Below are positions 17,159 through 62,630 of a stretch of DNA of 64,000 nt, piece by piece. Made by a program: the position numbers and the translations under genes. The notes under the pieces are model-generated. The model did not search any database and had not been told where the DNA came from. It saw nothing but the letters and a program-made list of their open reading frames with translations. Numbering within the stretch: position 1 is the stretch's first letter; every line of letters starts with the position of its first letter. The stretch spans positions 240,104-304,103 of the forward strand of contig JAKPDW010000025.1 in the NCBI GenBank assembly GCA_029552245.1, written 5' to 3'. This stretch comes from Deltaproteobacteria bacterium (GTDB taxonomy: Bacteria; Desulfobacterota; Desulfomonilia; UBA1062).

Positions 17159-20100
17159 ATGGATGCAAGAAGGAAGGGCCGGGGGGCGCCCGGTACGGAC
17201 GGTCCCCGTGTTGCGTCGAAAAGCCATAGGTCCGGGCCCCTGACCTCACGTGTGCTCGCAGCCCTCTTCTCGTCGAACCCCACCGCCATGGCGGTGTCCG
17301 AACTGCCAACGGGAAAGATCGTCGAGGTGAACGAGGCCTTCGTGAGCCTGACCCTCTTCGCCAGGGAAGAACTCGTCGGCCGCGAGGTTACAGGCCTCGG
17401 CATCTGGGCGGACCCACAGGAGAGGGAGCGCTACCTGGAACTCCTGCGCACCGAGGGCGCGGCACGGGAATTCAGGTGCAGGCTCAGGCGCAAGGACGGC
17501 GAGCTGCGAGATGTGGTCCTCAACGGCTCCATGGTCCGCGGCCATCGCTCCGGAGGGATCGTGGTGAGCTTCCTCAGGGACGTGACCGACCAGCTCAGGC
17601 TCCAGAAGGAAATCGCACAGAGCGAGGAGCGATACCGTCGCATCACCTCCGCGGTCACGGATTACATCTACACGGTGCACATCGAGGGCGGCAACGTGGT
17701 GCGCACGGTGCACGGCGCGGCCTGCGAGGCGGTCACCGGGTACACTCCCGAGGACTTCGAGCGAGACCCGTTCCTGTGGTACACCATGATCTTCGAGGAT
17801 GACAGGGAGGCCGTGAGGGAACACTTCAACAGGGTGACGACCGGAGAGCGCTGCCAGCCCATCGAGCACCGCATAAGGCGCAAGGACGGCACGGTCAGGT
17901 GGGTGAGCAACATACCCGTCATCCACAGGGACGCATCCGGGAACATCGTGGGCTACGACGGTGTCTTGAGCGACATCACCGAGCGCAAGCTCGCGGAGAA
18001 GGAGCTCAAAGAGAGCGAGGAGCGGTTCAAGGCCCTGCACGAGGCATCCTTCGGGGGCATCGGGATCCATGACAGGGGCCTCATCCTCGACTGCAACAGG
18101 GGCCTCGAGGTCATCACGGGTTACAGCCGCGAGGAGCTCATAGGCATGAACGGGCTCATGCTCATCGCCCCCTCCTGGCGTGAGCACGTCATGGAGAAGA
18201 TCGTCTCGGGCTACGAGAGGCCCTACGACGTGGAGGGGATCCGCAAGGACGGCACGATCTACCCGCTCGAGATCCAGGGGAAGCAGATCCCCTACCACGG
18301 GAAGACGGTGAGGGTCACGGAGTTCAGGGACATCACCTGGCGAAAGCGGATCGAGGACGAGATCAGGGTGCGCCAGGCCAGGATCGACAGCATCTTCAGG
18401 GCTGCGCCCGTCGGTATCGGGATGGTGGTCGACAGGGTGATACAGGAGGTGAACGACCGCGTATGCGAGATGACCGGGTACAGCAGGGAGGAACTCACCG
18501 GGGTCTCTGCTCGCGTCCTGTACCCGGACGATGACGAGTTCGAGCGCGTGGGCAGGGAGAAGTACGCCCAGCTGGAAAAGGCCGGGGTGGGAACCGTCGA
18601 GACGAGGTGGAAGAGGAAGGACGGGTCCATCATCCACATCATCCTCAGCTCTGCGCCCATTGACCCCCGAGATCCCGGCACAGGGTACACCTTCACCGCC
18701 CTCGACATCACCATGCGGAAGCTCGCCGAAGACAGGCTCAAGGAGAGCGAGGAGCGATACCGCCTCATGGCCGAGCTCACCGGAAAGCTGGTCTACGACG
18801 TCGACCTCGACGCCGGCAGGCACACCTGGGACGGCGCCGTGGAGGTGATCTCCGGGTACACGAGGGAGGAGTTCGCATCGGTGGACATGGCGGGCTGGAC
18901 GCGCATGATCCACCCCGAGGACAGGCCCGGAGTGATCATGGCGTTCGAGAGGGCGCTCAACACGCGCAAGCCCTTCAGGGCCGAGTACCGCATCCTCAGG
19001 AAAGACGACAAGACCATATACGTCGAGGACAACGGCGTGTTCGTGACCGACAAGTCCGGGAGGCCCTACCGCATGCTCGGGAGCATAGGGGACATCACGG
19101 CCCGCAGGCTCTCCGAGCTGGCGCTCAAGGAGAGCGAGGAGCGCTACCGCAACATGTTCGACAACTCGCACGCCGTCATGCTCCTTGTAGACCCGGCGAG
19201 CGGCGCCATCGTGGACGCGAACCCTGCTGCGTGCTCGTACTACGGGTATTCCAAAAACGAGCTCGTCTCGATGAAGATCACGGACATAAACACGCTCAGC
19301 CCAAGGGAGATCTTCGCCGAGATGGAGCGGGCGCGCTCCAGCAGGAAGCGGTACTTCAACTTCAAGCACCGCCTTGCGGACGGAGTCGTTCGGGACGTGG
19401 AGGTCTTCAGCGGGCCCATCACGGTCGAGGGCCGAACCCTCCTGTTCTCCATCGTTCACGACGTGACCGACCGGAGGCTCGCCGAAGAGGCCCTCAGGCG
19501 GAACGAGGAACGGTTCCGGCAGATCCTTCAGAACATAGCGGACATCATCGTGATCCTCGACAGCCAGGGCCGCATCACCTACGAGACCCCTTCCCTGGCG
19601 CGCGTGCTCGGTTACGCGCCGGGCCATCTCGTGGGCGCATCCCCCCTCGACCTCGTCCATCCCGAAGACAAGGAACTCGTGGCCCGCGATCTCACAGGGG
19701 TCTACGAGGGGACGAACAACGGCATCCCCACCGAGTTCCGCATATTGAAAGCGGACGGGACGTGGATCTACCTGGAGGCAATAGGCAGCAGGCTCGAGGG
19801 TGAGAGCCGGCAGGGCAGCGTGATCATCACGGCGCGCGACGTGACCGACCGCAAGAAGGCCGAGGGTGCGAAGATGGAGATGGAGAGGCGGATGCTCCAC
19901 GCGCAGAGGCTCGAGAGCCTCGGCGTGCTGGCCGGCGGCATAGCACACGACTTCAACAACCTCCTCATGGCCATCCTGGGGAATATCGACCTGGCACGGA
20001 TAGACGTCCCCCCCGGGTCCAGGGCGATGACCTTCCTGGACAACGCCATGATGGCGTCCAGGAGGGCCGCGGACCTCACGAACCAGATGCTCGCCTACTC

Positions 20101-21584: not shown

Positions 21585-22601
21585 TCACTGGGCGCGGTCC
21601 GCTCCGGGTATGAACTCCCTGGGCCTCACCTCGACGAGCTGAATGGCATCCAGAGGGCACGAGTTCGCGCACAGGCCGCAGCCGATGCACGCGGCCTCAT
21701 CCACGACGGCCGTCCCCCCTTCCGGCACACCCATGGCGCCCACGGGGCAGACCTCGGCGCATGCCCCGCACGACGAGCACGTCCCGGCGTCCACCCGGGG
21801 CCTGAATCTGCTCGGCGCCACCACGCCCTTCGTCCTTGTGTCGGTCGCGAACCTGAGCATCTCGCAGCAGCAGCTGCAGCAGTTGCAAAGGACGTTCGAC
21901 CTGCCGGCCGTGTTCTCGGTCATGTGGACGAGGCCGGCGTCCCGGGCGCGCGCGAGGATCTCGAGGGCCTCCCCGACGTCCACGCGCCTGCCCGTGCCCC
22001 GCTTGATGGTGTATTCCGCCCCGCGGTCCAGCTGCAGGCACACCTCGAGGGGCGCGTCGCACCTCCCCATGAGCTTGCGGCACACGCAGGTGGTCACCGC
22101 TATCTCCCGGGCGGACCCCAGCATGGCCGCCGCGTCCTCGAAAGCGAGCACCTGGTTGCGCGCCTCGACGGTCTCGCCGATGGGGATCACCCGCATGAAG
22201 GACGGCAGCTTGAGGCTGGTGACGAGTTCCAGGAGGCCGGGATAGTCGGTCTCCGAGAAGGAGCGCCAGAGGTCGAACAGCTCAGGGGGGGCGTCAGGCC
22301 ACAGGATCGTGGCGTCGTGGAACTGGACGATGTGGCGGGGCCCCCGGTACATCGTGACCCCGTCCTTGACGTAGTCGAAGACGGCGCCCCTGGCGAAGAG
22401 ACCGTCGATGACGGCCTGCATCTCTTCCCTGCCCTTCCCGAACGCCTCGCAGAGCTCGTCCACGGTCGCGGGCATACGGGCGATGATCGCCGCCTCTTCC
22501 TCGGAGCACACGATACGCCAGATCTCGCGCACCGTCTCGGAGTTCTCCATCATGAGCCTTTTAGCGAGTTCCCTGTACACGTCTTGTTCGGCCATGCCCA
22601 C
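21585..22601 (-). CDS. iron-sulfur protein: N-terminal helical domain plus Cys-rich region (CNCCSCCC) and 2x4Fe-4S ferredoxin motifs
   Basis: 338 aa. CVCRKLMGRC, NVLCNCCSCCCE, CSSCGACAEVCP, CIGCGLCANSCP. Confidence 0.6.
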   Translation of the reverse strand: MGMAEQDVYRELAKRLMMENSETVREIWRIVCSEEEAAIIARMPATVDELCEAFGKGREEMQAVIDGLFARGAVFDYVKDGVTMYRGPRHIVQFHDATILWPDAPPELFDLWRSFSETDYPGLLELVTSLKLPSFMRVIPIGETVEARNQVLAFEDAAAMLGSAREIAVTTCVCRKLMGRCDAPLEVCLQLDRGAEYTIKRGTGRRVDVGEALEILARARDAGLVHMTENTAGRSNVLCNCCSCCCEMLRFATDTRTKGVVAPSRFRPRVDAGTCSSCGACAEVCPVGAMGVPEGGTAVVDEAACIGCGLCANSCPLDAIQLVEVRPREFIPGADRAQ

Positions 22602-22659
22602 CTCCTTATAGTTTCATCATAGCCCTGCCGATGAAGTCCATGCAAGGCTGTCGTATGGT

Positions 22660-23565
22660 ATGACATGCATCGAGCGGGTTGTCGGAGGGACGGAAGGCAT
22701 GCACCAGCTCTTCTCGGAAGAAGAGATCAGGAAGACCTACGAGGAGCTCCTCTGGCACAAGAGGAGCAGGGACATCATCCTCGAGTACGCTCTGAACAGG
22801 TCCGACGTGAGGGAGGAGGCGCTGAGGGGGCTCGATCTGGGCGGTGCCAGGGAGGTGATCGACCTCGGGTGCGGCTACGGGTTCTTCACCGAGGCACTCG
22901 GGGGGAGGCTCCACAGGAAGGCCCGCGTCATAGGTGTCGACGTGGTGAATCACCGCAACCGAGAGGCCTTCGTCGACACGGTGACCTGCATGGGGTACGA
23001 GGCGGCGTTCATCCAGGGCAGCGCCGACATCGTGGCTGACCTCGAGACGGCCAGGTTCGATCTTGCGATAGCGAGCTATTCGCTCTACTTCTTCCCCCAC
23101 CTCGTGCCCGAGATCTCGCGCATCCTCAAGGACACGGGGGTCTTCATCGCCGTGACCCACAGCGAGACCTCTCTCGGCGAGATCATCTCCCACGTGGTGC
23201 GGTCGATGGAAGAACACGGGATAGCCCCGGCAGGCGATCTCAGGATCAACAAACTCTTCAAGGCCTTCTCCGTTGAGGGGGGGCGTCAACTCCTCGAGCC
23301 CCACTTCCATCAGGTGGAGTGTATCCCCTTCGCCAACGCGCTGGCGTTTCCCCTGGACCGCTTCGAGGCCTGCATCGACTACCTCGACACCAAGAAGCAC
23401 CTCCTCCTCAAGGAGGTGGCGGACCATAGGCCGGAGGCGCTCGAGGCGGTGATGGACGCGCTCGTGAGGAACCTGTTCGACCACGCGAGATCTCACGGAA
23501 AGGTCGTCGTGAGCAAGGACGACGGCATCTTCAGGTGCCGGAGGCCTGTGAGGAGGGGGCCATGA
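22660..23565 (+). CDS. class I SAM-dependent methyltransferase
   Basis: Motif [16 protein letters not shown], motif post-I RVIGVD. About 300 aa. Stop overlaps the downstream NUDIX start (ATGA). Confidence 0.65.
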
Positions 23566-24571
23566 GGAGAAGCAGGGCGTACTGCGCGTATTGCGGCGCC
23601 TCTCTCGTGAGGCGCGACATCGAGGGGAGGGAGAGGGACGGGTGCCCGGCATGCGGCGCGGTGTTCTACGAGAACCCCCTGCCCGTGGCGAGCGCCATCG
23701 TGGTGGACGATGACCGGCGGATCCTCCTCGTCAGGAGGAACAACGAGCCCTACAGGGGCATGTGGTGCCTTCCCATCGGGTTCGCGGAGGCCGGGGAGGA
23801 GGTCAAGGACGCAGCCCTCCGGGAGCTCGAGGAGGAGACGGGCGTGAGAGGGACGGTCGTGAGGCTCATCGACGTGGACACGGTCGAGAACGACTACTAC
23901 GGGAGCCTCGCCATCGTCACCTACGAGGTCAGGGCCACGGGCGGGAGGCTCAGGCCGGGGGACGAGCCTCGGACGCCGCCTATTTCCCCATCTTCGATCT
24001 CCCGCCGCTGGCGTGGTCGTCCAACGAGAAGGCGGTGGGCCGGTACATAGAGTTGTACAGGGACACCTGGGCCATGATGGACTCGTTCATGCAGCTCTTC
24101 CCTGACCTCGGGCCCGCTCACCCCGCGAGGATGGACGGGCATGGCAGCGGGCCCATCCTGTCGGACGTGCTGGTGAAGGTGATCGAGAAGGACCGCGAGG
24201 CGATCGTCAAGGCCTGGGCCGACGAGGTCAAATCCTCGATCCCCGCACTCGCGCCCGCCATCGACGAGATCGAGAGGCTCAACCGAGCGGTGCTCGAGGG
24301 GGTCCGCTTGGGGCTCAGGGGGCAGAGACACCCCTTCGACCGGGACATGCTCAGGCGGGAGGGCAGGTCCCTCAGGGAGAAGGGGCTGCCCCTGCCCGAG
24401 ATCCTCGACGCCCTGGCGCTCAGCAGGAAGAACATCTGGGTGCACGTGATCGGGAAGCGTATCCTGTCGACCCCGCTGGAGATCTACAGCACCCTGGAGC
24501 TCAACAACCGCATCATCTTCCTCTACGACAAGGTCTACCACCACCTCACCGAGGGTTACACCTCGCCGTGA
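23562..24571 (+). pseudogene. Zn-ribbon NUDIX hydrolase interrupted by an apparent 1-nt frameshift at the G5 run 23957-23961; downstream frame continues the NUDIX fold and adds a roughly 200-aa C-terminal domain
   Basis: Frame 0 (23562..24050): CAYCGASL...CPACGAV zinc ribbon and Nudix box [29 protein letters not shown], then junk ([27 protein letters not shown]). Frame +2 across the same DNA reads [32 protein letters not shown] (canonical NUDIX C-terminal helix) and stays open to 24571. One extra G in CCGGGGGAC restores one ORF. Confidence 0.55.
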
Positions 24572-24742
24572 GCGGGTCCCGGCGGCGTGGCGGGCGGGCC
24601 CTTTCCCGTCGGAAACCTCGGGGCAGGTCTCCCAGGCCCCGGGTATGCGCCGGGGACCGGGTGCTCCGGGTCATCTCTTCTCCGCTGGAAGCCGCCGCAC
24701 CGCTCGTTATGGCCGCTCGGCAGTTCCCGGTCGGCCGTGCGC

Positions 24743-24851
24743 GCCACCGGTCACGCTCGGGGTGGGCCCTGTTCGGACGTTGTGTCAGACCCAAAGGGCT
24801 AAATAATACAGACAGGCCACCGGTCACGCTCGGGGTGGGCCCTGTTCGGAC
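24743..24851. repeat. two perfect 36-bp direct repeats (GCCACCGGTCACGCTCGGGGTGGGCCCTGTTCGGAC) separated by a 37-bp AT-rich spacer; period 73 bp
   Basis: Copies at 24743-24778 and 24816-24851, identical. Spacer gttgtgtcagacccaaagggctaaataatacagacag is far below local GC. The second copy overlaps the last codons of the 2-hydroxyacid dehydrogenase ORF. Confidence 0.6.
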
Positions 24852-25855
24852 CCCAGGGGGTGACCTCCCCGGGGTACGTTCCAGATGAACGTGCCGTGCT
24901 CGAGGAAGTGCAACGCCTGCCGCACGGTCTGGGCCGCCTTTCTCTCCACCGACTCCTGCGTGTTGAACGCGTTGTGCGGGGTGCACAAGACGTCCTTCCT
25001 CATGGCGAGCCTCGAGACCGCATCCGCCCCGGGGTGAACCCCGGGCGCGCCCGATCTCATCGCCTGGGCGAGGGCGCTCTCGTCTGCGTACACGTCGAGG
25101 CCCACACCCGAAAGGTGACCTTCCTCCAAGAGCTTGAGGAGATCGGACTCGCGCACGAACTCCCCCCTTGCCACGTTGATGAACACGGCGCCGGGCTTCG
25201 CCCTCTTGAGGACATCGTAGGAGAAGTATCCTGCGTTGTCGGCGGTCAGGTTCATGGAGCAGACGATGACGTCCGCCCTGGCGAGGGCGTCCTCGAGGTT
25301 CGTGTACCTGACCCAGCCATGCCTCCTGACGATGTCCACACCCAGGACCTCCATGCCCAGCGCGCCGGCGAGGCGGCACACTTCCGAACCGATGGATCCC
25401 ACGCCCACCACCGCGACCGTCTTGCCGAGGCACTCCCACCCGGTGAGACCGTCCCTGTCGAAGCGGGTGAGGTTCTCGATCTGCGCAGGGAGCCTGCGCA
25501 TGAGGGCCATCCACATCATGAGGGCGTGCTCCGCCACGGCCCGGCTGCAGTAGTGGGGGAGGTACCCGGCAGGGATGTCCCTGTGCGATGCCTCGAGAAA
25601 GGAGAGCACGTGGTCGTAACCGGTGCTCCTGGTGAGGATCGCCTGTATATCCCTCTCCCACGCACGGGGGATGACCGACTGCGTCCGTATGCACAGGATT
25701 CCCCCGGGAAGCGTTGTGTGGCCTGACTCCTGGATGGTGAGGGGGAAAAACGCCGCCTTCGTGTTCCCGGGCAGATGCCGCTTGAGGGCCTCGCGCTCCT
25801 CCTTGAAGACCTCGTAGAAGACGATGTCCACCCCCTTCCTGTACCTCAGCCGCAT
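24824..25855 (-). CDS. D-isomer-specific 2-hydroxyacid dehydrogenase family protein (NAD-binding)
   Basis: Internal Met (complement 25853-25855) of the 746-aa track ORF gives MRLRYRKGVDIVFYEV... with Rossmann GKTVAVVGVGSIGSEV and catalytic region ...INVARGEFV...LDVY...CTPHNAF. The upstream 400 codons are an artefact. Confidence 0.75.
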   Translation of the reverse strand: MRLRYRKGVDIVFYEVFKEEREALKRHLPGNTKAAFFPLTIQESGHTTLPGGILCIRTQSVIPRAWERDIQAILTRSTGYDHVLSFLEASHRDIPAGYLPHYCSRAVAEHALMMWMALMRRLPAQIENLTRFDRDGLTGWECLGKTVAVVGVGSIGSEVCRLAGALGMEVLGVDIVRRHGWVRYTNLEDALARADVIVCSMNLTADNAGYFSYDVLKRAKPGAVFINVARGEFVRESDLLKLLEEGHLSGVGLDVYADESALAQAMRSGAPGVHPGADAVSRLAMRKDVLCTPHNAFNTQESVERKAAQTVRQALHFLEHGTFIWNVPRGGHPLGSEQGPPRA

Positions 25856-25993
25856 GCCCCATGGCAACAGGCGCTCGCGGAGGAAGGACCCTTGAAGGGG
25901 GTGAGTCGGTCCGGGCCGCTCAAGTTCGCCACTTGTGCTACCGTAACGATGCACGTGGGCCACCAGAGGCGGCCCGGCGCATGGGTGAGGGAC

Positions 25994-27208
25994 ATGAGGA
26001 AGGTCATGACATTCTTGGTTCCAGGCGGCGTGCTCGCGCTCGCATCCCTCCTCCTCGTCAGGCTCGACGCGATGGAGGGCTGCCTCGACGAGGTCTCCCG
26101 GCTCTACCCTGTCCTCGCCACGGCCCTCGGCGTCGCCTACGGGCTCAGGTTCGACCGCTCCTCGCTCGTCCTCGGTGCGCTGTGTCCCGCAATGGCGCTC
26201 TGGTCGCTCTCTTTCTTCGGGTCCATCCACGATCCCACGGACATGCACTGGCGCGTTGCGTATGTGTCGTGCAGCGTGCTTTTGCCCGTGAACCTGTGCG
26301 TGCTCTGCCTGCTCAAGGAGAGGGGAACGCTGACCGCAAGGGGGATCGCGAGGCTCCTCGCGATCCTTGCGCAGCCCCTCGTCGTGGGGGCGGTCGCGGG
26401 TAGGGACCCCTCCAGGTTCGTGAACGTGCTCGAGCGCGGGGTGATCCCGTGGGGGTTCGCGGAAGCCCTCCCTCTCCCCCAGGTATCGGCGCTTGCGGGC
26501 GCGGTGTGCCTGATCTTGACCGCGGTCCTCTTCGTGGTCAGGGGCGGGGCCAGGGAGGCGGGGTTCTTCTGGGCGCAACTCGCGAGCATCGCGGCCTTGG
26601 CCTCGGGGCCGGACCGAGAGGTCGCGGCCTTTCACCTGGGGAGCGCATCGCTGATACTCCTTGTCTCCATGGTGGAGATCTCCCACGCCATGGCGTTCAA
26701 GGACGAGCTCACCGGGCTGCCCGGGAGAAGGGCGCTCAAGGAAGAGCTCCTGAAGCTCGGCTCCGAGTACTGCCTTGCCATGGTGGACATCGACCACTTC
26801 AAGAAGTTCAACGATACCTACGGTCACGACGCCGGAGACCAGGTGCTGAAGATGGTCGCCTCGCGGCTGGGACATGTGGGTGGTGGGGGCAGGGCGTTCC
26901 GTTACGGCGGGGAGGAGTTCACGATCGTGTTTTCCGGGAGGAATGCCCAGGATGCACTCGAGCACCTGGAGGAGTTGAGGAAGGACGTGGCGTCTTTCCC
27001 GTTCGTGATCCGGTCGGCGCTGAGGCCGATCAGGAGCCCGGACCGAAGGGGTGTCCGTTCGCACGGGCGCAAGAACGTCACGATCACCATAAGCGTGGGC
27101 GCGGCCTGGCCGGGGGGCTCTGCCTCGAAGCCCGAAGAGGTGCTCGAGGCCGCGGACAAGGCCTTGTACAGGGCGAAGAAGAGGGGAAGGAACAGGGTGG
27201 AGTCTTGA
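25994..27208 (+). CDS. membrane-anchored diguanylate cyclase (GGDEF)
   Basis: About 6 N-terminal TM helices then GGDEF domain with RYGGEEF active site and inhibitory-site-like KELLKLGSEY. Start chosen at Met 25994; Met 26006 is also possible. Confidence 0.75.
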   Translation: MRKVMTFLVPGGVLALASLLLVRLDAMEGCLDEVSRLYPVLATALGVAYGLRFDRSSLVLGALCPAMALWSLSFFGSIHDPTDMHWRVAYVSCSVLLPVNLCVLCLLKERGTLTARGIARLLAILAQPLVVGAVAGRDPSRFVNVLERGVIPWGFAEALPLPQVSALAGAVCLILTAVLFVVRGGAREAGFFWAQLASIAALASGPDREVAAFHLGSASLILLVSMVEISHAMAFKDELTGLPGRRALKEELLKLGSEYCLAMVDIDHFKKFNDTYGHDAGDQVLKMVASRLGHVGGGGRAFRYGGEEFTIVFSGRNAQDALEHLEELRKDVASFPFVIRSALRPIRSPDRRGVRSHGRKNVTITISVGAAWPGGSASKPEEVLEAADKALYRAKKRGRNRVES

Positions 27209-27891
27209 TCCCGAGGCCTCGGGCCGGCCTTCAGGGGTGCACGTTTCGGCCGTCTTTCCCGTCAGGTATCCTGGAAAAGGTACTCCTCGACCTCCACGCG
27301 CCTTGAAAGACGTACCCGTCAGTCATCCAGGCAGGGAAGAGGTCTCTCCGAACTCCTGGCAACAACGCGCTCAGGTCCTGCCTTGCCGGGCCGTCGTCCT
27401 TGCCCGGGAAGGGCGCGACCGGGGATCGGGGCGAAGAACCGGCGCGGCTCGGCCGGGCCGGCGCAAGGTGCGCCCAGCCGTGGAGAGCCGCCTGATTCCT
27501 CGGGGGGTGACCGGGGGTGATCCTGTAGGTACCCAAGAAAAACCGTTCCTGGCGGTGACCTGGGGAACATGGAGGTGGTCGGGGTTCCGCCGGTTTCCCC
27601 CTTGCAGGACGGTCGACGAAAGACACCCGATAGAGAGACGGGCTCAGGTTTCATCTTCCTGAAGCGGACAAGCGTTGTTCAACGGCACTCAGCCCTGCCG
27701 ACCGGTGAGGCATCGTAAGCGGGACCTGGGGCGATCCGGTGCCCCCCTGTGTGCCTGGCGCCGAGAGCAGGCCGAGGGCAAGAAAACGACAAGAGTGAGG
27801 AAAAACAATTCCCTCTTGTGGGCCGGCTCGCTTGTGGCTTTATAACATACTGGAATGCCTAATAAAAACTATAAATGAACAGCCGTTAGCC

Positions 27892-39521: not shown

Positions 39522-40766
39522 TCACGGTGCATCAGGGCTCACGAGCCTCGCCCGTCTGCCGAGGCGCCAGAGCACGGTTCCCGCGATCAGCCCTATCACG
39601 TACCCGTAGGGGAGCCCGGCTGCCACCAGGCCCACGAGAACGGTGACGGGGAAGCCGTTCGCCTCGCCCACGACGTCCCGGATGAGCCAGATGAGGGCGA
39701 GGGCCTCGAAGAGCAGCAGCACGCCGAGCATGGGCAGGGGGAACGCCTTCACGACGTGGTCGAAGCCGGTCCCCAGAAAGAGCCCGCACGTGACGAGCAG
39801 GGCGCCGTAGATGACCACCGACCCGCCGGTGCGCCCGCCGAAGGCGAAGTGGCCGGCCATGCCGCCGGAGCCGTGGCAGGTGGGCACGCCGCCGAACCAC
39901 GGGTTGACGAGGTTCATGACGGCGTAGGTGAGCCCGATCCTCTTGATCGACAGGGGGCGCTCCGGGAAGAGGTCGACGGCGAGCTGGCGCGTGGCGAGCA
40001 CCGAGTTGCACAGCGACAGGGGGATCTGGGGCAGGGCGAGCACCACGAAGCCGGTCGCCATGTCCGCGGGGCTGAACGAGGCGAGCGATGGCAGGTGGAA
40101 GCCGAGGCTCGAGGCCAGGGCGTCGCCCTCGAGATTGAAGGCGAAGGCGTAGACGAGCCCCATGACGACCACCGCGAGCGCGGCCGGGAAGCGCCTGTTC
40201 CCGAGGAGCGCCACGGTGGCGACGAAGGCGGCCAACGCCAACACATAACCCATGGCACCGTCCGACAGCACGAACTTGCCGAGCGCCACGCCTGCCAGCT
40301 GGAGCCCGAGCCCGAGCTGGATACCCCTGATCACGCACTTGGGTACCACCCTCCCCAACCAGTCGAGCATCCCGGTGAGCGCGAGCAGGAGCATGACGAG
40401 GCCGATGGCAAGCCCCGCGCCGTGGAGCTGGGCGGCCGTGACCTGCTGGGATATCACTATGGCTGCCATGGCCTTCAGGGGTTGAACCGGCATGGGCATC
40501 CTGTAGGAAAGCCCCGTGAAGACCTGCATCAGGCCGAACATGACGAGCACGCTCGTCGCGTCCAGCCCGCAGGCAAGCGTCACCCCGATGAGCAGGGGGA
40601 TGTCCGTGCCCATGTCCCCGAACGCGCCCGCGAGCTCGTTCCTGTTGAACCGTATCCTGGCGCCGGCGGCACCACCGCTCACGTGGGGGCGGTCCACCGG
40701 TGCGGCCTGCAGGGGCTGCGTCACCCGGGCCTTGGGGTCGGGCGCGGTGCCCGGTTGCGTGTTCAT
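39522..40766 (-). CDS. polytopic anion transporter, putative molybdate/sulfate transporter (MOT1/SulP-like, 414 aa)
   Basis: C-terminal part of the 873-aa track ORF from MNTQPG... About 11 TM helices with a two-repeat organisation (MFGLMQVFTGLSYRMPMPVQPLKAMAA ... TCHGSGGMAGHFAFGGRTG). ATG overlaps the stop of the upstream molybdoenzyme gene (ATGA). Family assignment is tentative. Confidence 0.5.
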   Translation of the reverse strand: MNTQPGTAPDPKARVTQPLQAAPVDRPHVSGGAAGARIRFNRNELAGAFGDMGTDIPLLIGVTLACGLDATSVLVMFGLMQVFTGLSYRMPMPVQPLKAMAAIVISQQVTAAQLHGAGLAIGLVMLLLALTGMLDWLGRVVPKCVIRGIQLGLGLQLAGVALGKFVLSDGAMGYVLALAAFVATVALLGNRRFPAALAVVVMGLVYAFAFNLEGDALASSLGFHLPSLASFSPADMATGFVVLALPQIPLSLCNSVLATRQLAVDLFPERPLSIKRIGLTYAVMNLVNPWFGGVPTCHGSGGMAGHFAFGGRTGGSVVIYGALLVTCGLFLGTGFDHVVKAFPLPMLGVLLLFEALALIWLIRDVVGEANGFPVTVLVGLVAAGLPYGYVIGLIAGTVLWRLGRRARLVSPDAP

Positions 40767-43000
40767 GCGGGCTCTATCCTGCAGGGCACGTACCTGTGGA
40801 TGGGCGTGGCTGCGAACCTGTCGCGGTTCGTGGTCTTCGTGAGCCGGTTCACGTTGGCTCCGTAGGCCCTGCCCTGGTAGACGAGCCCGAACCCGTGGGG
40901 TATGAGGACCTGTCCCTTCCTCGTCGCCTCGGTCACCTCGGCCTCCACCTCGACCTCGCCGGCCTCGGTGATCACGCGCACGATCTGGCCGTCCGAGATG
41001 CCGATCCTGCCGGCGTCCTCCGGGTGGACGCTCACGGTGCAGGCACGTCTGCCCTCGTTCCATGCAGGGTCGCGCATGAGGGTGTTCGCGTTTGCGCTCA
41101 TGTGTCTGCCGGCCTGGAGGATGAGGGGGTAGTCTGGGTGGGGCGCCAGCGCCTCTTCTTCGCGGCCGGGCTCGATCTCCCTCACCCAGGGGTCCATCTC
41201 CGGGATGGAGACGTGGAGTTTCTTGTCCTCGTGGGCGATCATCGAGAAGTTGTCCTCCTTGTCGGCGAGCCCCAGGATCAACCCCTCCGGGTGGTCGAGG
41301 ATCGCCTGGAAGATCTCCTCCCCCATCGTGATGCCGGGCGTGAACCCGGCCCTCGCAGCCGCCTTCCTGAAGGACTTGGGCGCCGTCTGGAGGAGTCCCC
41401 ACAGGGCGGCCAGGTTGGGTGAGCCGAGCCGCTCTCCCAGGGTCTTCGCGAGGATGAACGGCATGTTCGCAAGCGCCCTCGGCTCGGCGGTCGCGTAGTT
41501 CATGAGCTCCGCGCCGAAGGTGAGACGGTCCTTGGAGGCGGCCTCGACGAGAGAGTCGGGTATGGGAGGGACGATGCCGAGTTTCTCGGCGAGCATCGTG
41601 TGGATGCTGCTCAGCTCCAGCCTCTCGCCCTCGGGCTCGACCACGGGCCGCCTCATCTGGAAGTAGATCTCGGGGAAGGTCCAGGCGAAGAAGGTCCCGT
41701 CCCACGACTCGTAGCCCGAGCGCGCGGGCAGGACGTAGTGGGACAGGCGCGCCGTCTCGGTCATGGAGAGCTCGCAGGTGACGAGCAGGTCGAGCCTTCC
41801 GAACGCCTTCTCGTACATGGTGGTGTCCGCGAACGACCTCAGCGGGTTCGACTGGCAGCACAGCACCGCCCTGAGCCGCTCCGGGTGGTCCGAGAGGATC
41901 TCCTCGGGCATGACGTTGGGGGGGTACACGCCCATGAGCGCAGGGAACCCCGTGGTCACGGTCTTCCAGTTCTTCGGGTCGCGCTCGTCGGTGTGCGCGC
42001 CGATGGGCATGAGGTGGCCGGGGATCACGTTGCCGCCCGGCACGCAGAGCCTGCCGCAGACGGCGAGCAGGAGGAGCAGGAGGTAGGTGGTCGCCGTGCT
42101 GTGGCGGTTCATGTACACGCCGAGGTCCGTGTGCATGCACCACCTGCGCGTGGTCATGAGTCTGCAGAGCCCACGCACGGCGTCATAGTCGAGCTCGCAG
42201 ACCCTCACCGCGTCGCGGGCGTCGAACCCCCTGAACCAGGGCTCGATCTCCTCGAAGCCCTGGACATGCAGCTCGAGGTACTCCCTGTCCTGCCAGCCCT
42301 CCTCGAGGATGATCGAGATCATGGCCCTGGCGAGGAGCGCGTCCGTCCCGGGCCTCACGGGAAGGTGGATGTCGGCGATCTCGGCCGTCTCGGACCTGCG
42401 CGGGTCGATGACCACGAGCAGCTTGTCCGGGTTCTTGGAGAACTCCCTCAAGACCAGGGGCGCGCGCGGCATCTGGTGGCTCTGCATGCCGTTCCACCCC
42501 ACGGCCACGAGCATGTCCGCTTCCTCCTCGTGGGGGATGGCGTAGAGGTACTGCCTGCCCGCGAGCCTGCCCGAGGCCCAGAAGATGCCGGTAAGCTCCT
42601 GGGCGAGGGCGTTGTAGTGGTAACGGGAGCCGAGCGCCCGCATGAGCCTCACACCGAATGCGGCCTCGAAGTGGCAGCCCTGTCCCCCTCCGCCCATGTA
42701 TGCGAGGCTCCTCGGGCCGTGGGTCTCGACGATCGCCTTGAGCCTCTCGGCGATCTCCCCGATCGCCTGGTCCCAGGAGATGCGCTCGAAGCGGTCGCCC
42801 ACCCTCTTGAGGGGAGAGGAGATCCTGTCCGCGTGGTGCTGGTGGAAGGCGATGTTGGCGCCCTTGCGGCACAGGTAGCCCTTGGAGCGGGGGTTGTCCC
42901 TGTCGCCCCTCGCCTTGACGATGCGGTTGTTCTCCACGTACACCTCGAGCCCGCAGTTCTGCGCGCAGAGCACGCACCCCGTCTTCTTCCATTCACCCAT
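40763..43000 (-). CDS. molybdopterin-dependent oxidoreductase (formate-dehydrogenase-like, MopB superfamily) with N-terminal 4Fe-4S
   Basis: 745 aa. N-terminal CVLCAQNCGL...CRKG cluster motif and MopB-type domains. No in-frame TGA, so a Cys rather than Sec form, if homologous to Sec enzymes at all. Confidence 0.8.
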   Translation of the reverse strand: MGEWKKTGCVLCAQNCGLEVYVENNRIVKARGDRDNPRSKGYLCRKGANIAFHQHHADRISSPLKRVGDRFERISWDQAIGEIAERLKAIVETHGPRSLAYMGGGGQGCHFEAAFGVRLMRALGSRYHYNALAQELTGIFWASGRLAGRQYLYAIPHEEEADMLVAVGWNGMQSHQMPRAPLVLREFSKNPDKLLVVIDPRRSETAEIADIHLPVRPGTDALLARAMISIILEEGWQDREYLELHVQGFEEIEPWFRGFDARDAVRVCELDYDAVRGLCRLMTTRRWCMHTDLGVYMNRHSTATTYLLLLLLAVCGRLCVPGGNVIPGHLMPIGAHTDERDPKNWKTVTTGFPALMGVYPPNVMPEEILSDHPERLRAVLCCQSNPLRSFADTTMYEKAFGRLDLLVTCELSMTETARLSHYVLPARSGYESWDGTFFAWTFPEIYFQMRRPVVEPEGERLELSSIHTMLAEKLGIVPPIPDSLVEAASKDRLTFGAELMNYATAEPRALANMPFILAKTLGERLGSPNLAALWGLLQTAPKSFRKAAARAGFTPGITMGEEIFQAILDHPEGLILGLADKEDNFSMIAHEDKKLHVSIPEMDPWVREIEPGREEEALAPHPDYPLILQAGRHMSANANTLMRDPAWNEGRRACTVSVHPEDAGRIGISDGQIVRVITEAGEVEVEAEVTEATRKGQVLIPHGFGLVYQGRAYGANVNRLTKTTNRDRFAATPIHRYVPCRIEPA

Positions 43001-43619
43001 GCCTTTTCCCTCCTCTCTTGCGCGCGTGCGCGTCAGCCCCGGCCAGGATGCGCTCGAAGACCATGCGCCTGCATATCCTCAAGGGGCGGGTCGACTTCGC
43101 GAGCTTCATGTGCATGATGGCGCCCTCCCAGCTGTCGAGGATGAACCATGCCGTCTCTTCCGTGTCCAGGTGCCCGGCCACCTGGCCCAGGCCCTTCGCC
43201 TCGTCGAGGACCGCCTGTATGGCGGCGTGCATGCCCTCGTAGGCCCGTGCGACCCTCTCCCTGAATGCCTCGCTCACGTCGCTCATCTCCTGCATGAGGT
43301 TGCCGATGGGGCAGCCGCGGCTGAACCCCATCTTCTCGAACATGTTCTCGTAGGCGTCCATGAAGCGAGCGAGCCTTTCCAGGGGGGGAGTCCCCTGGTC
43401 GCCGAGGAGTTTCTCGCCCGCCGACTCGATGAGGCTCTGGAAGTGGTCCACGAGGGCGAGCCCGAAGTCCTCCTTGCTTTTGAAATGGAAGTAGAACGAT
43501 CCCTTGGGCACGCCCGCGGCATCCAGTATCTCCTTGAGCCCGGCCGCCCTGAAACCCCGGGCGTGCACGATGCGCGCGCCTTCTTCGATGATGGTCTGCC
43601 TCGAGGGGGTGCGGGCCAT
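42993..43619 (-). CDS. TetR/AcrR-family transcriptional regulator
   Basis: Internal Met (complement 43617-19). HTH region GFRAAGLKEILDAAGVPKGSFYFHFKSKEDF. Overlaps the oxidoreductase start by 8 nt. Confidence 0.7.
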   Translation of the reverse strand: MARTPSRQTIIEEGARIVHARGFRAAGLKEILDAAGVPKGSFYFHFKSKEDFGLALVDHFQSLIESAGEKLLGDQGTPPLERLARFMDAYENMFEKMGFSRGCPIGNLMQEMSDVSEAFRERVARAYEGMHAAIQAVLDEAKGLGQVAGHLDTEETAWFILDSWEGAIMHMKLAKSTRPLRICRRMVFERILAGADAHARKRGGKRHG

Positions 43620-43625
43620 GGGGGA

Positions 43626-43645
43626 TATAATAGACCGGTCGTCTA
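43626..43645. promoter_or_regulatory. TATAAT box abutting perfect palindrome TAGAC-CGGTC-GTCTA in the TetR/pgm divergent region (candidate TetR operator)
   Basis: Seen directly at 43626-43631 (TATAAT) and 43631-43645 (palindrome). Confidence 0.35.
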
Positions 43646-43771
43646 CATCCGTCAACCCCGTTTCTCGCCCGAGGTTTACCGGTGAGCACAATTCGGGTAC
43701 AATGGCGGGGTCGTTGCCGGATGTCCCGCGTTCGGACGTTTTTCGATCCACGATTGACAGGAGGGTGAGTC

Positions 43772-54244: not shown

Positions 54245-54724
54245 ATGGCCATGAAACGCAACCCCATAACCCGGGAAGGATACGCGGCGCTTAGGGAGGA
54301 GCTCGAGAGGCTCAAGAAGCACGAGAGGCCCAAGATCATCGCGGCCATAGAGGAGGCACGCGGCCACGGCGACCTGTCCGAGAACGCAGAGTACATCTAC
54401 GCCAAGGAACGCCAGGCCTTCATCGAGGCGCGGATGCAGGATCTCGAGAACAAGCTCGGCAACGCGGAGATCGTCGACACGAGCAGGCTTCCCACGGACC
54501 GCATCGTGTTCGGGTCCACCTTCGTGCTCGTCAACGTCGACACGGGCGAGGAGAGCCGCTACCAGATCGTGGGGGTGGACGAGTCCGACATCTCGAAGGG
54601 GAAGATCTCGGTCGAGTCCCCCATGGCAAAGGCCCTCATCGGCAAGAGGGTGTCGGACGAGGTGGTGGTGGAGACGCCCGCCGGCAGGCGCGAGTTCGAG
54701 GTCGTGGAGATCGTCAGCGGCTGA
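54245..54724 (+). CDS. greA: transcription elongation factor GreA
   Basis: 159 aa, typical GreA N-terminal coiled coil and C-terminal FKBP-like domain. Confidence 0.9.
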   Translation: MAMKRNPITREGYAALREELERLKKHERPKIIAAIEEARGHGDLSENAEYIYAKERQAFIEARMQDLENKLGNAEIVDTSRLPTDRIVFGSTFVLVNVDTGEESRYQIVGVDESDISKGKISVESPMAKALIGKRVSDEVVVETPAGRREFEVVEIVSG

Positions 54725-55439
54725 CGACCGGCTCCGCCTCGCGCTTCCCGAAGAGGTACGTCACCGCGACGCTCAGTTCGAACAGCGCGTAGAGCGGCAC
54801 ACCCAAGAGGGCCATGCTGAGCACGTCCGGCGGGGTCAGCACCGCAGCCGCTATGGCGATGATCAGGATCGCGTACTTGCGGTTCTTCGTCAGCGTCCTG
54901 TGGGTGACGACACCCATCCTCGCCAGGAAGAACATGACCACCGGCAGCTCGAAGGTGACCCCGAAGGCGATGATGAGGCTCATGCACAGGCTCAGGTACT
55001 CCTTCATCGAGGGCAGCGCCCGGATGTGGTCCGTGGAAAAGCTGAGGAAGAACCTGAAGCCGAAGGGGAAGGCCACGAAGAACGCGAAGGACGCCCCCAA
55101 GAGAAAGAACAAGATCGCCGCGGCCATGAAGGGGTGCACGTACCTCCGCTCGTTCGGGTAGAGCCCTGGCATCACGAACTTCCACGCCTGGTAGAAGACC
55201 ACCGGCGCCGCGAGGAAGAGACCGGCGAAGAAGGACACCTTGAGGTAGGTGACGAACGCCTCCTGGAGCGAGGTGTAGATGAGGGTGCTCCCTTCGGGCA
55301 TGGCCTGCACGAGCGGCCAGGTGAGCAGGTCGAAGATCCGGCTCGCGAAGGAGTAGGACAGGGCGAAGCCGACGCCGATCGCGGCCAGGCACTTGAGGAT
55401 CCTCCGCCTGAGCTCCTCGAGGTGCTCGGTGATGGGCAT
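54714..55439 (-). CDS. tatC: twin-arginine translocase subunit TatC
   Basis: Internal Met (complement 55437-39) gives MPITEHLEELRRRILK... with 6 TM helices. The upstream 74 codons of the track ORF are an Arg-rich artefact. Confidence 0.85.
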   Translation of the reverse strand: MPITEHLEELRRRILKCLAAIGVGFALSYSFASRIFDLLTWPLVQAMPEGSTLIYTSLQEAFVTYLKVSFFAGLFLAAPVVFYQAWKFVMPGLYPNERRYVHPFMAAAILFFLLGASFAFFVAFPFGFRFFLSFSTDHIRALPSMKEYLSLCMSLIIAFGVTFELPVVMFFLARMGVVTHRTLTKNRKYAILIIAIAAAVLTPPDVLSMALLGVPLYALFELSVAVTYLFGKREAEPVVSR

Positions 55440-55476
55440 CCGTTCCTCGTCCACGCGCCTTCTCCCCGAGCCCCGC

Positions 55477-55719
55477 TCACTCGGCGGCCTTCTGTGGGTC
55501 GTCCCTCTCCGGCCGTCTCTCGTCGTCCTTCTTCGCTTCCGGCGAGGGCCTCTCGGTGAGGCTCGACTCGAACTCCCGCTTGATGTCGTCCGTGGCCCTC
55601 TGGAACTGGCCGAACGCCCTGCCCAGGGTGCGTGCGATCTCCGGGAGGTTCTTGGGGCCAAGCACGATGAGCGCTATCACGAGTATCACGAGGAGTTCCT
55701 GGCCGCCTATGCCGAACAT
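55477..55719 (-). CDS. tatA: twin-arginine translocase TatA/TatB-family subunit
   Basis: MFGIGGQELLVILVIALIVLGPKNLPEIARTLGRAFGQF... 80 aa. C-terminal end of the 732-aa track ORF, the rest of which is an artefact. Confidence 0.8.
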   Translation of the reverse strand: MFGIGGQELLVILVIALIVLGPKNLPEIARTLGRAFGQFQRATDDIKREFESSLTERPSPEAKKDDERRPERDDPQKAAE

Positions 55720-56337
55720 GTCCCACCGTCTAACCCATGGGCAGGCCAAAGTCAAACGGGTGCTCGCAGGCAGGGCGGCCCGGCGCCCGGCGATCGCCGG
55801 GACCACAACCGTGCGGCGGAAGCGGGCCCTGGTCCGGGGAAGACGGCAGGGCATGGGGGGCGGGGTCCTTGAAGGGCGCCGAGCGCGGGGTCTCGCGCGT
55901 GCCTGCCGAGGACTCGGTGCGTGCAGGCTGACCCCTCGGGACATCCGGCGCCTTCGCCGTGGGCCGCGAAGAGGGCCGCGCCCGTGTGCACCGGAGGTCT
56001 GTTCAGGGCCGTGTATCCCGAGCAGGATGTGGACCCTCTCGCCCGCGCACACCGGGGGTCTGGTGGGAGATTTGATTCCATAGGCAGGCTGGACGCCGTC
56101 ACGCACGTACTCACCGGAATTGGGAGGAAGGTCCCTCCGGAACGAGGCCCACGAACAGGCGTCGCGCCCCCGCACATCGGGGTTGGGTGGGTGGCCTGTC
56201 TCCAGTCGATCTACGTCCTCAGTCTGGCCCGTGCACACCTGCGGTCTGGCCCCGGAGCGGTCTTTCCCCGGGGCAAGGCTGCCGGCCTTGACCCCGGATG
56301 TTCCGGGGGTTACTATGCCCAGCGGGATACCGAGAGC

Positions 56338-62542: not shown

Positions 62543-62630
62543 TGGTGCCGGAGAAGGGAATCGAACCCCCACGGACGTAACGTCCATCGGATTTTGAGTC
62601 CGACGCGTCTACCAGTTCCACCACTCCGGC
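62543..62630 (-). tRNA. tRNA-Leu (anticodon CAA), type II with long variable arm, CCA encoded
   Basis: Reverse complement folds as GCCGGAG (acceptor) / D-arm / anticodon stem TCGGA-CTCAAAA-TCCGA (anticodon CAA) / long variable arm TGGACGTTACGTCCG / T-arm GGGGGTTCGATTCCC...CTCCGGC ACCA. Confidence 0.8.

Follow-up and report, generated by a model that had tools for sequence, protein, structure and literature searches.

A single-base deletion splits a zinc-ribbon NUDIX-globin gene in a Desulfobacterota strain, probably as a young frameshift pseudogene

The stretch analysed here, called the window throughout, comprises 64,000 nucleotides from a Deltaproteobacteria bacterium (GTDB lineage Desulfobacterota; Desulfomonilia; UBA1062; assembly GCA_029552245.1, contig JAKPDW010000025.1, positions 240,104 to 304,103 of the forward strand). 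It carries a gene for a zinc-ribbon NUDIX hydrolase with a C-terminal globin-like domain, and the reading frame of this gene is broken. Based on our results, we conclude that the break is very probably a real, recent and strain-specific one-base deletion, which makes the locus an ordinary young frameshift pseudogene of the NUDIX-globin gene. A reading made from the letters alone (the sequence-only reading) had located the frameshift at a run of five Gs (the G5 run) and had offered a homopolymer sequencing error, a recent inactivation or a slippage-prone site as its cause. Recent inactivation is the option that our results favour, since the intact allele occurs in strains 99.3-99.97% identical to the window and the gene displays no decay.

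Layout of the locus and site of the lesion

The elements of the locus are given below, with positions of the window and codon numbers that refer to the repaired gene starting at ATG 23562.

22660 to 23565, plus strand: class I S-adenosylmethionine (SAM)-dependent methyltransferase, 301 amino acids (aa), the upstream operon partner, from the list of open reading frames (ORFs)
23562 to 23965, plus strand: native N-terminal part of the NUDIX gene in frame 0, codons 1-134 and two bases of codon 135
23583 to 23654, plus strand: C4 zinc ribbon (C8, C11, C28, C31), the four cysteines being invariant in 100 homologues
23778 to 23846, plus strand: Nudix box, G73-V95, fitting GX5EX7REUXEEXGU, with its residues invariant in the homologue alignments
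23957 to 23961, plus strand: G5 run, read in frame as CCG GGG GAC (P132 G133 D134)
23964 to 23966, plus strand: site of the one-nucleotide deletion, a C being absent between 23965 and 23966
23966 to 24050, plus strand: out-of-frame tail of the first ORF (ORF1), E135 and 27 further residues, with TAG at 24048-24050
23966 to 24571, plus strand: native C-terminal part of the NUDIX gene in frame +2, codons 136-336 and TGA, without a native start codon
23966 to 24097, plus strand: severed elements of the Nudix fold, namely the beta-strand 136-143, the LAWSSNEKA motif and the C-terminal helix 153-179
24146 to 24562, plus strand: globin-fold sensor-like domain of six helices, residues about 196-334

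Translation and the ORF list agree with the sequence-only reading on the general layout. Frame 0 opens at ATG 23562, encodes the zinc ribbon and the Nudix box, and then degenerates into a tail rich in P, R and S that ends at TAG 24048-24050. Frame +2, which has no stop from 23762 until 24569-24571, carries the rest of the protein, about 190 residues beyond the Nudix helix; gene callers start this second ORF (ORF2) at GTG 24035 or TTG 24053. The ATG of the NUDIX gene and the TGA of the methyltransferase overlap as ATGA, also as described before. In this sequence of 65% GC the high third-position GC content passes from frame 0 (0.93-1.0) to frame +2 (0.90-1.0) between 23922 and 23967, and in frame 0 it falls to 0.40-0.53 within the ORF1 tail; both halves of the gene therefore carry a genuine coding signal. 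With one base inserted, the repaired protein has 336 aa from ATG 23562 or 345 aa from GTG 23535.

The lesion does not lie in the G5 run. GGGGG is the same in intact and broken alleles, and the base that differs is a C three bases downstream. The window reads CCG GGG GAC GA followed by G CC, so that the third base of codon 135 is absent; the intact allele has GAC GAC GCC (D134 D135 A136) where the window has GAC GA-GCC. Written out, the intact allele is GACGACGCC and the deletion allele, that of the window, is GACGAGCC. In alignments of 17 and of 100 sequences, G133, D134 and A136 of the P-G-D-D-A motif are invariant and D135 is nearly so. Because the family has PGDDA and the frame of the window is kept through the G5 run as far as PGD, the break is assigned to codon 135/136. 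An extra G, as had been proposed, does restore the frame and with it a single protein, but it replaces the invariant PGDDA with PGGRA. Repair by an extra G in the G5 run was rejected on these grounds, and the missing base is a C.

Intact alleles and ancestry of the fusion

An exact look-up of the 178-aa C-terminal ORF placed it in the same 90% cluster as two full-length proteins, P0129 (336 aa) and P0128 (345 aa), each of which is the window protein repaired with D135 (PGDDASDAAYF). Intact alleles were likewise found as DNA. A Logan contig from run SRR31392930 (L028) shares 99.973% identity with the window over 11,239 bp; the differences are two single-nucleotide polymorphisms (SNPs), at 20052 and 21699, and a single indel, which is the extra C between 23965 and 23966. 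The same extra C is present in a 99.3% sister strain (L027, Logan SRR16606022), which is otherwise identical to the window across 23500-24590. At the lesion site the orthologue P0001 reads GGC GAC GAC GCG. Given the intact alleles in L028, L027 and P0001, the window allele is the derived one, with a C deleted from GAC GAC GCC.

Comparison with orthologues, the check that the sequence-only reading had suggested, gave a continuous ORF: the syntenic P0001, with 79% amino-acid identity, is unbroken. Its neighbourhood matches that of the window, with a 4Fe-4S protein, the methyltransferase-ATGA-NUDIX pair, a 2-hydroxyacid dehydrogenase and a GGDEF gene, and identity to it is 78.5% over residues 1-135 and 82-84% for the C-terminal part. 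The repaired protein has 772 homologues; the best 120 of the 772 are all single ORFs, nearly all of about 335 aa, and seven more distant loci are also continuous, with one tblastn segment each. A continuous fusion of about 336 aa is thus the native form, as every one of the more than 100 listed and aligned homologues is continuous. Exact scans of the GTDB representative genomes, which do not include the source species, returned no match to the junction pattern with an optional base or to a 58-mer from within the gene. The junction pattern also had no match in a scan of metagenome contigs, where a protein-based scan recovered more distant, intact loci alone. A second copy of the NUDIX gene was not found in the window by tblastn. 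Together these comparisons of sequence show that the fused architecture is ancestral, as judged from the homologues, and that the intact allele is present in near-identical strains.

Evidence that the deletion is real

The deletion allele was recovered base for base, with identical flanks, in at least eight assemblies made by four pipelines: JGI, MEGAHIT (k141), SPAdes (NODE) and Logan. The carriers are as follows.

JGI: 3300010338 (a 303,695-bp contig), 3300009712 and 3300025605
ENA: ERZ27257400, ERZ27257413 and ERZ27257437, with MEGAHIT-style names, and ERZ795046, with a SPAdes-style name
Logan: SRR5007227

Three NCBI protein records from metagenome-assembled genomes (MAGs) also show this truncated product. 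The deletion is carried by two haplotypes, with T or G at 22801, the additional SNP 22801 T>G being seen in two assemblies. Furthermore, one and the same pipeline yields both alleles, as the Logan sequence is broken from SRR5007227 and intact from SRR31392930 and SRR16606022.

These observations bear directly on the possibility that the organism really has GACGACGCC and that a systematic sequencing or assembly error lost a base. The site lies 3 nt from the G5 run in DNA of 65% GC, many of the assemblies with the deletion may stem from the libraries of one project, and the intact alleles come from other runs, which would fit such an artefact. However, the lost base is outside any homopolymer, and the same deletion occurs in at least three JGI sample ids as well as across the assemblies, pipelines and haplotypes named above. 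A single pipeline producing both alleles from different runs also argues against an artefact, as does the co-segregation of the deletion with the SNPs at 20052 and 21699 that set it apart from the intact strain. Finally, no other frame break was found in the 64 kb: a scan of third-position GC over this length gave no second same-strand frame switch without a stop besides the NUDIX site. We therefore consider an artefact very improbable, and a homopolymer error in particular is contradicted. At the level of assembled sequence, the data show the deletion to be real and not an assembly error.

Consequences for the encoded protein

In the proposed course of events, the C in third position of codon D135, three bases downstream of the G5 run, would have been lost, and translation from ATG 23562 would run into 28 out-of-frame codons and end at 24048-24050. 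The resulting product of 162 aa would keep the zinc ribbon and the Nudix box and would lack the last beta-strand, LAWSSNEKA, the Nudix C-terminal helix and the whole globin-like domain. Judging from a structural model and from conservation, the truncated enzyme is likely inactive, and we infer that the downstream ORF of 172-178 aa is poorly expressed or silent. It is from this presumed inactivity and this presumed lack of ORF2 expression that the locus is read as a young pseudogene.

Public annotation presents the locus as two separate genes. In the MAG records ('Deltaproteobacteria bacterium', MAG TPA) HOM28319.1/HOM28320.1, HPP79322.1/HPP79323.1 and HOJ12995.1/HOJ12994.1, a 'NUDIX hydrolase' of 162 aa is accompanied by a 'hypothetical protein' of 178 or 143 aa, with no indication of a disrupted gene.

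The deletion event appears recent, as no decay has followed it. Relative to the 99.3% sister strain L027, the NUDIX-globin gene has no substitutions in 1,006 nt. Among the columns that are at least 95% conserved, the repaired protein departs from 1 of 61 (N part) and 1 of 50 (C part), which is the norm for the family, and a test for relaxed selection at conserved columns gave no signal.

The longest substitution-free stretch between the window and L027, 1,140 nt (23500-24638), holds the NUDIX-globin gene. Substitutions against L027 number 9 in the methyltransferase, 11 in the 252-nt downstream spacer and 21 in the 2-hydroxyacid dehydrogenase. Recent recombination, strong constraint or chance are each possible explanations for this stretch.

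Alternative explanations

If the deletion is real, the strain might still make two useful polypeptides from a functionally split gene, the globin-like one starting at GTG 24035 or TTG 24053, possibly by reinitiation after 24050. Such a split would agree with the called ORF2 of 178 or 172 aa, which overlaps or abuts the ORF1 stop, with globin-like homologues that occur as ORFs of about 140-190 aa, with a deletion allele old enough to sit on two haplotypes, and with an ORF2 free of substitutions. The N-terminal part, however, is equally free of substitutions, so recency suffices to explain the conservation of ORF2, and several of the short homologues are broken genes rather than standalone ones. 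Both products lack the invariant LAWSSNEKA motif as well as half of the long helix. By inspection there is no good Shine-Dalgarno sequence before TTG 24053 or GTG 24035 (a GAGAAGG lies just 2 nt upstream), and a promoter/terminator scan of 22400-24900 gave no promoter-like site in the operon. A functional split has no positive support and we regard it as unlikely.

A different way to keep the gene functional would be recoding or phase variation, that is, -1 ribosomal frameshifting, transcriptional slippage at the G5 run, or switching by tract length. The G5 run lies 3 nt upstream of the lesion, a GGGAGG precedes the run by 8 nt, the downstream frame is intact, and the breaks of other lineages (described below) cluster nearby. 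Against this, the G5 run is unchanged between the on and off alleles, which differ by one C in GACGA[C]GCC, and a slip at the run would give PGGRA and not the invariant PGDDA. No in-frame X XXY YYZ heptamer is present at the junction (AGG CCG GGG GAC GAG CCT), and the RNA fold of 23930-24030 has z = -0.04 relative to shuffles, with no stimulatory structure. The homologues listed and aligned, more than 100, need no frameshift, and the breaks of other lineages run in opposite directions (-1, +1, +1) in unrelated sequence contexts. The window resembles a programmed -1 frameshift of the dnaX type in the -1 shift that would be needed and in the G-rich stretch nearby; unlike that type it has no slippery heptamer, no structure and no conserved frameshift, and an intact allele exists in the same species. 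Phase-variable contingency loci change the length of a repeat tract, and here the G5 run is unchanged. Recoding and phase variation are in our view hardly credible, and the slippage-prone site of the sequence-only reading is contradicted by the constant G5 run, the lack of a heptamer at the junction and the fold score.

The same gene was also found broken in three other species. L033 (2514-3522), from a long-read assembly to judge by its contig name, has an additional C at codon 142/143 (TTTCCC[C]ATC). In L034 (2640-3639) an extra A follows directly after PGDDA at codon 136/137, with a second frameshift near codon 41-45. L036/L037 (1642-3492) have gained a C within a C-run at codon 131/132, shift back near codon 160, and have a methyltransferase interrupted by a stop. 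Counting the window, four lineages are broken within codons 131-143, and the directions of the breaks differ (-1, +1, +1). Conserved P-G and F-P codons produce C or G runs, which account for two of the four positions. These copies surfaced in a search with the globin-like domain, an ascertainment that favours breaks leaving a short C-terminal ORF. On comparison of their sequences, we regard the breaks as repeated gene loss whose position is possibly non-random.

Several points weigh against a young pseudogene. The evidence for the alleles consists of assemblies, some of which may re-use the same reads, and a platform artefact common to related libraries is conceivable. ORF2 is perfectly preserved and standalone globin-like homologues exist, which makes a functional C-terminal product conceivable. 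Loss of function is argued from a model and from conservation. Lastly, the three other lineages broken within codons 131-143 may mean that the position is not random. A recent frameshift pseudogene is nevertheless the reading that we hold to be very probable. The locus is like an ordinary strain-specific frameshift pseudogene in its single-base indel, its intact near-identical strains, its lack of secondary lesions and its two annotated ORFs, and the sole oddity by comparison is the presence, in three other lineages, of breaks in this gene within 12 codons of the site.

The intact protein family

The repaired protein matches the Pfam NUDIX domain (PF00293) over residues 41-154, a match that spans the break (E = 3.8e-21; 75.9 bits, cut-off 21.1); of the matched residues, 136-154 are missing from ORF1 by itself. 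The Nudix box reads G73-x5-E79-x7-R87-E88-L89-x-E91-E92-x-G94-V95, which is the motif of the Nudix superfamily. Before the Nudix domain the four cysteines form a CxxC...CxxC pattern, and Zn_ribbon_Nudix (PF14803) scores 24.1 bits, just below its cut-off of 25.6, with precomputed matches in several homologues. The AlphaFold (AF2) model of the orthologue P0001, with a pLDDT (predicted local distance difference test) of 82, has a zinc ribbon and a Nudix fold to about residue 150. The strand 136-143 and the long helix 153-179 come after the break in this model, followed by a six-helix domain at 193-334.

For the N-terminal part, 3cng and NudC score best in sequence and fold, at just 20-26% identity. 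The NUDIX hydrolase of Nitrosomonas europaea, 3cng, like the family has a C4 zinc ribbon directly before the Nudix fold (profile E = 1.1e-17, Foldseek E = 2e-11), and E. coli NudC, the NADH pyrophosphatase or NAD-RNA decapping enzyme, has the same order of zinc ribbon and Nudix domain (match about 1e-10). In contrast to both, the family of the window has an extra C-terminal globin-fold domain and a methyltransferase that is operonic or fused. NudC-type enzymes have the signature SQPWPFPxS downstream of the Nudix box (PMC6856373). This signature is absent after the Nudix box of the window protein, and the NCBIfam NAD(+) diphosphatase model gives 40 bits against a cut-off of 158.

The sequence-only reading had likened the C-terminal part to a helical sensory or regulatory domain, which is borne out by its globin fold. 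We compared it with the sensor globins DosC, BpeGReg, HemAT and GsGCS and with the non-haem RsbR N-domain and B. anthracis pXO2-61, at identities of 9-12%. In classical globin-coupled sensors the globin is N-terminal, whereas here the globin-like domain (about 196-334) follows an N-terminal Nudix domain. RsbRD_N (PF14361) scores 14.2 bits, below its gathering cut-off of 24.3, and precomputed matches to it are 'weak' alone. Helix 261-273, the presumed F equivalent, lacks a conserved histidine, and a near-invariant H295 lies in the next helix, 278-298. Haem binding thus appears doubtful and a non-haem sensor globin more likely. The domain is rare, with 86 representative clusters at E <= 1e-3 among 1.84 billion, and a pairing of a Nudix hydrolase with a sensor globin was not found in the literature searched. 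The intact family is uncharacterised but well-populated, and its compact pairing is widespread in anaerobic MAGs of the Desulfobacterota type.

The methyltransferase partner

The methyltransferase upstream of the NUDIX gene has Pfam matches to Methyltransf_11/23/25/31 on the identical JGI gene, and in NCBIfam it has generic class I matches, none of them at a curated cut-off. An intact NUDIX-globin gene would be translationally coupled to it through the ATGA overlap. The methyltransferase lies directly upstream in seven of seven family loci (at least 52% identity) with enough upstream flank. The loci named for an upstream methyltransferase were the window, L001, L007, L009, L010, L011, L013 and L014, with a 4-nt overlap where gene calls existed. 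In one protein, P0133 (629 aa), the methyltransferase, the zinc-ribbon NUDIX domain and the globin-like domain are joined in one chain, and this fusion argues for a functional link between the methyltransferase and the NUDIX-globin protein. This arrangement suggests a shared function that is still uncharacterised.

The family has an invariant tyrosine 18 residues past the Nudix box and is without the NADH and ADP-ribose signatures. As a tentative idea, and one that we think unlikely, the SAM methyltransferase, the zinc-ribbon Nudix domain and a C-terminal, probably non-haem sensor globin might form a module in which the Nudix domain is ligand-gated and acts on a dinucleoside-polyphosphate-like or cap-like nucleotide, and the breaks at codons 131-143 might have been selected because they disable or uncouple the hydrolase.

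Surroundings of the locus

The spacer downstream of the NUDIX-globin gene (24572-24823) is a substitution hotspot relative to L027 (4.4%) and has a one-nucleotide indel at 24591; a cluster of small indels against the same strain lies at 27731-27749, downstream of the GGDEF gene. The 746-aa ORF at 24824-27064 on the minus strand is over-extended, as is typical of high-GC DNA, and its C-terminal third (about 24824-25855) alone is the 2-hydroxyacid dehydrogenase. The over-extended ORF overlaps the real GGDEF diguanylate cyclase gene at 25775-27208 on the plus strand.

Further away, 40763-43751 on the minus strand holds genes for a molybdopterin-type oxidoreductase (745 aa) and a TetR-like regulator (252 aa), which overlap by 8 nt (42993-43000). 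At 54714-55720, also on the minus strand, TatC-like and TatA/B-like genes both lie within much longer spurious high-GC ORFs. Candidates of the third-position GC scan at about 43000 and about 55480 were rejected as frameshifts and are minus-strand gene boundaries. A tRNA-Leu(CAA) at 62543-62630 on the minus strand is the sole Rfam or ARAGORN match in the 64 kb.

Significance

The value of the finding is mainly practical. Two adjacent ORFs in public records, a 'NUDIX hydrolase' of 162/171 aa and a 'hypothetical protein' of 172/178 aa, are halves of one gene, and the break between them is no error but a genuine polymorphism among strains. The locus also illustrates that assigning a frameshift to the nearest homopolymer may miss the site by a few bases and thereby alter its interpretation. 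For the family itself, public metagenomes contain a near-isogenic pair, one strain intact and the other a natural knockout, which provides a ready comparison for its study.

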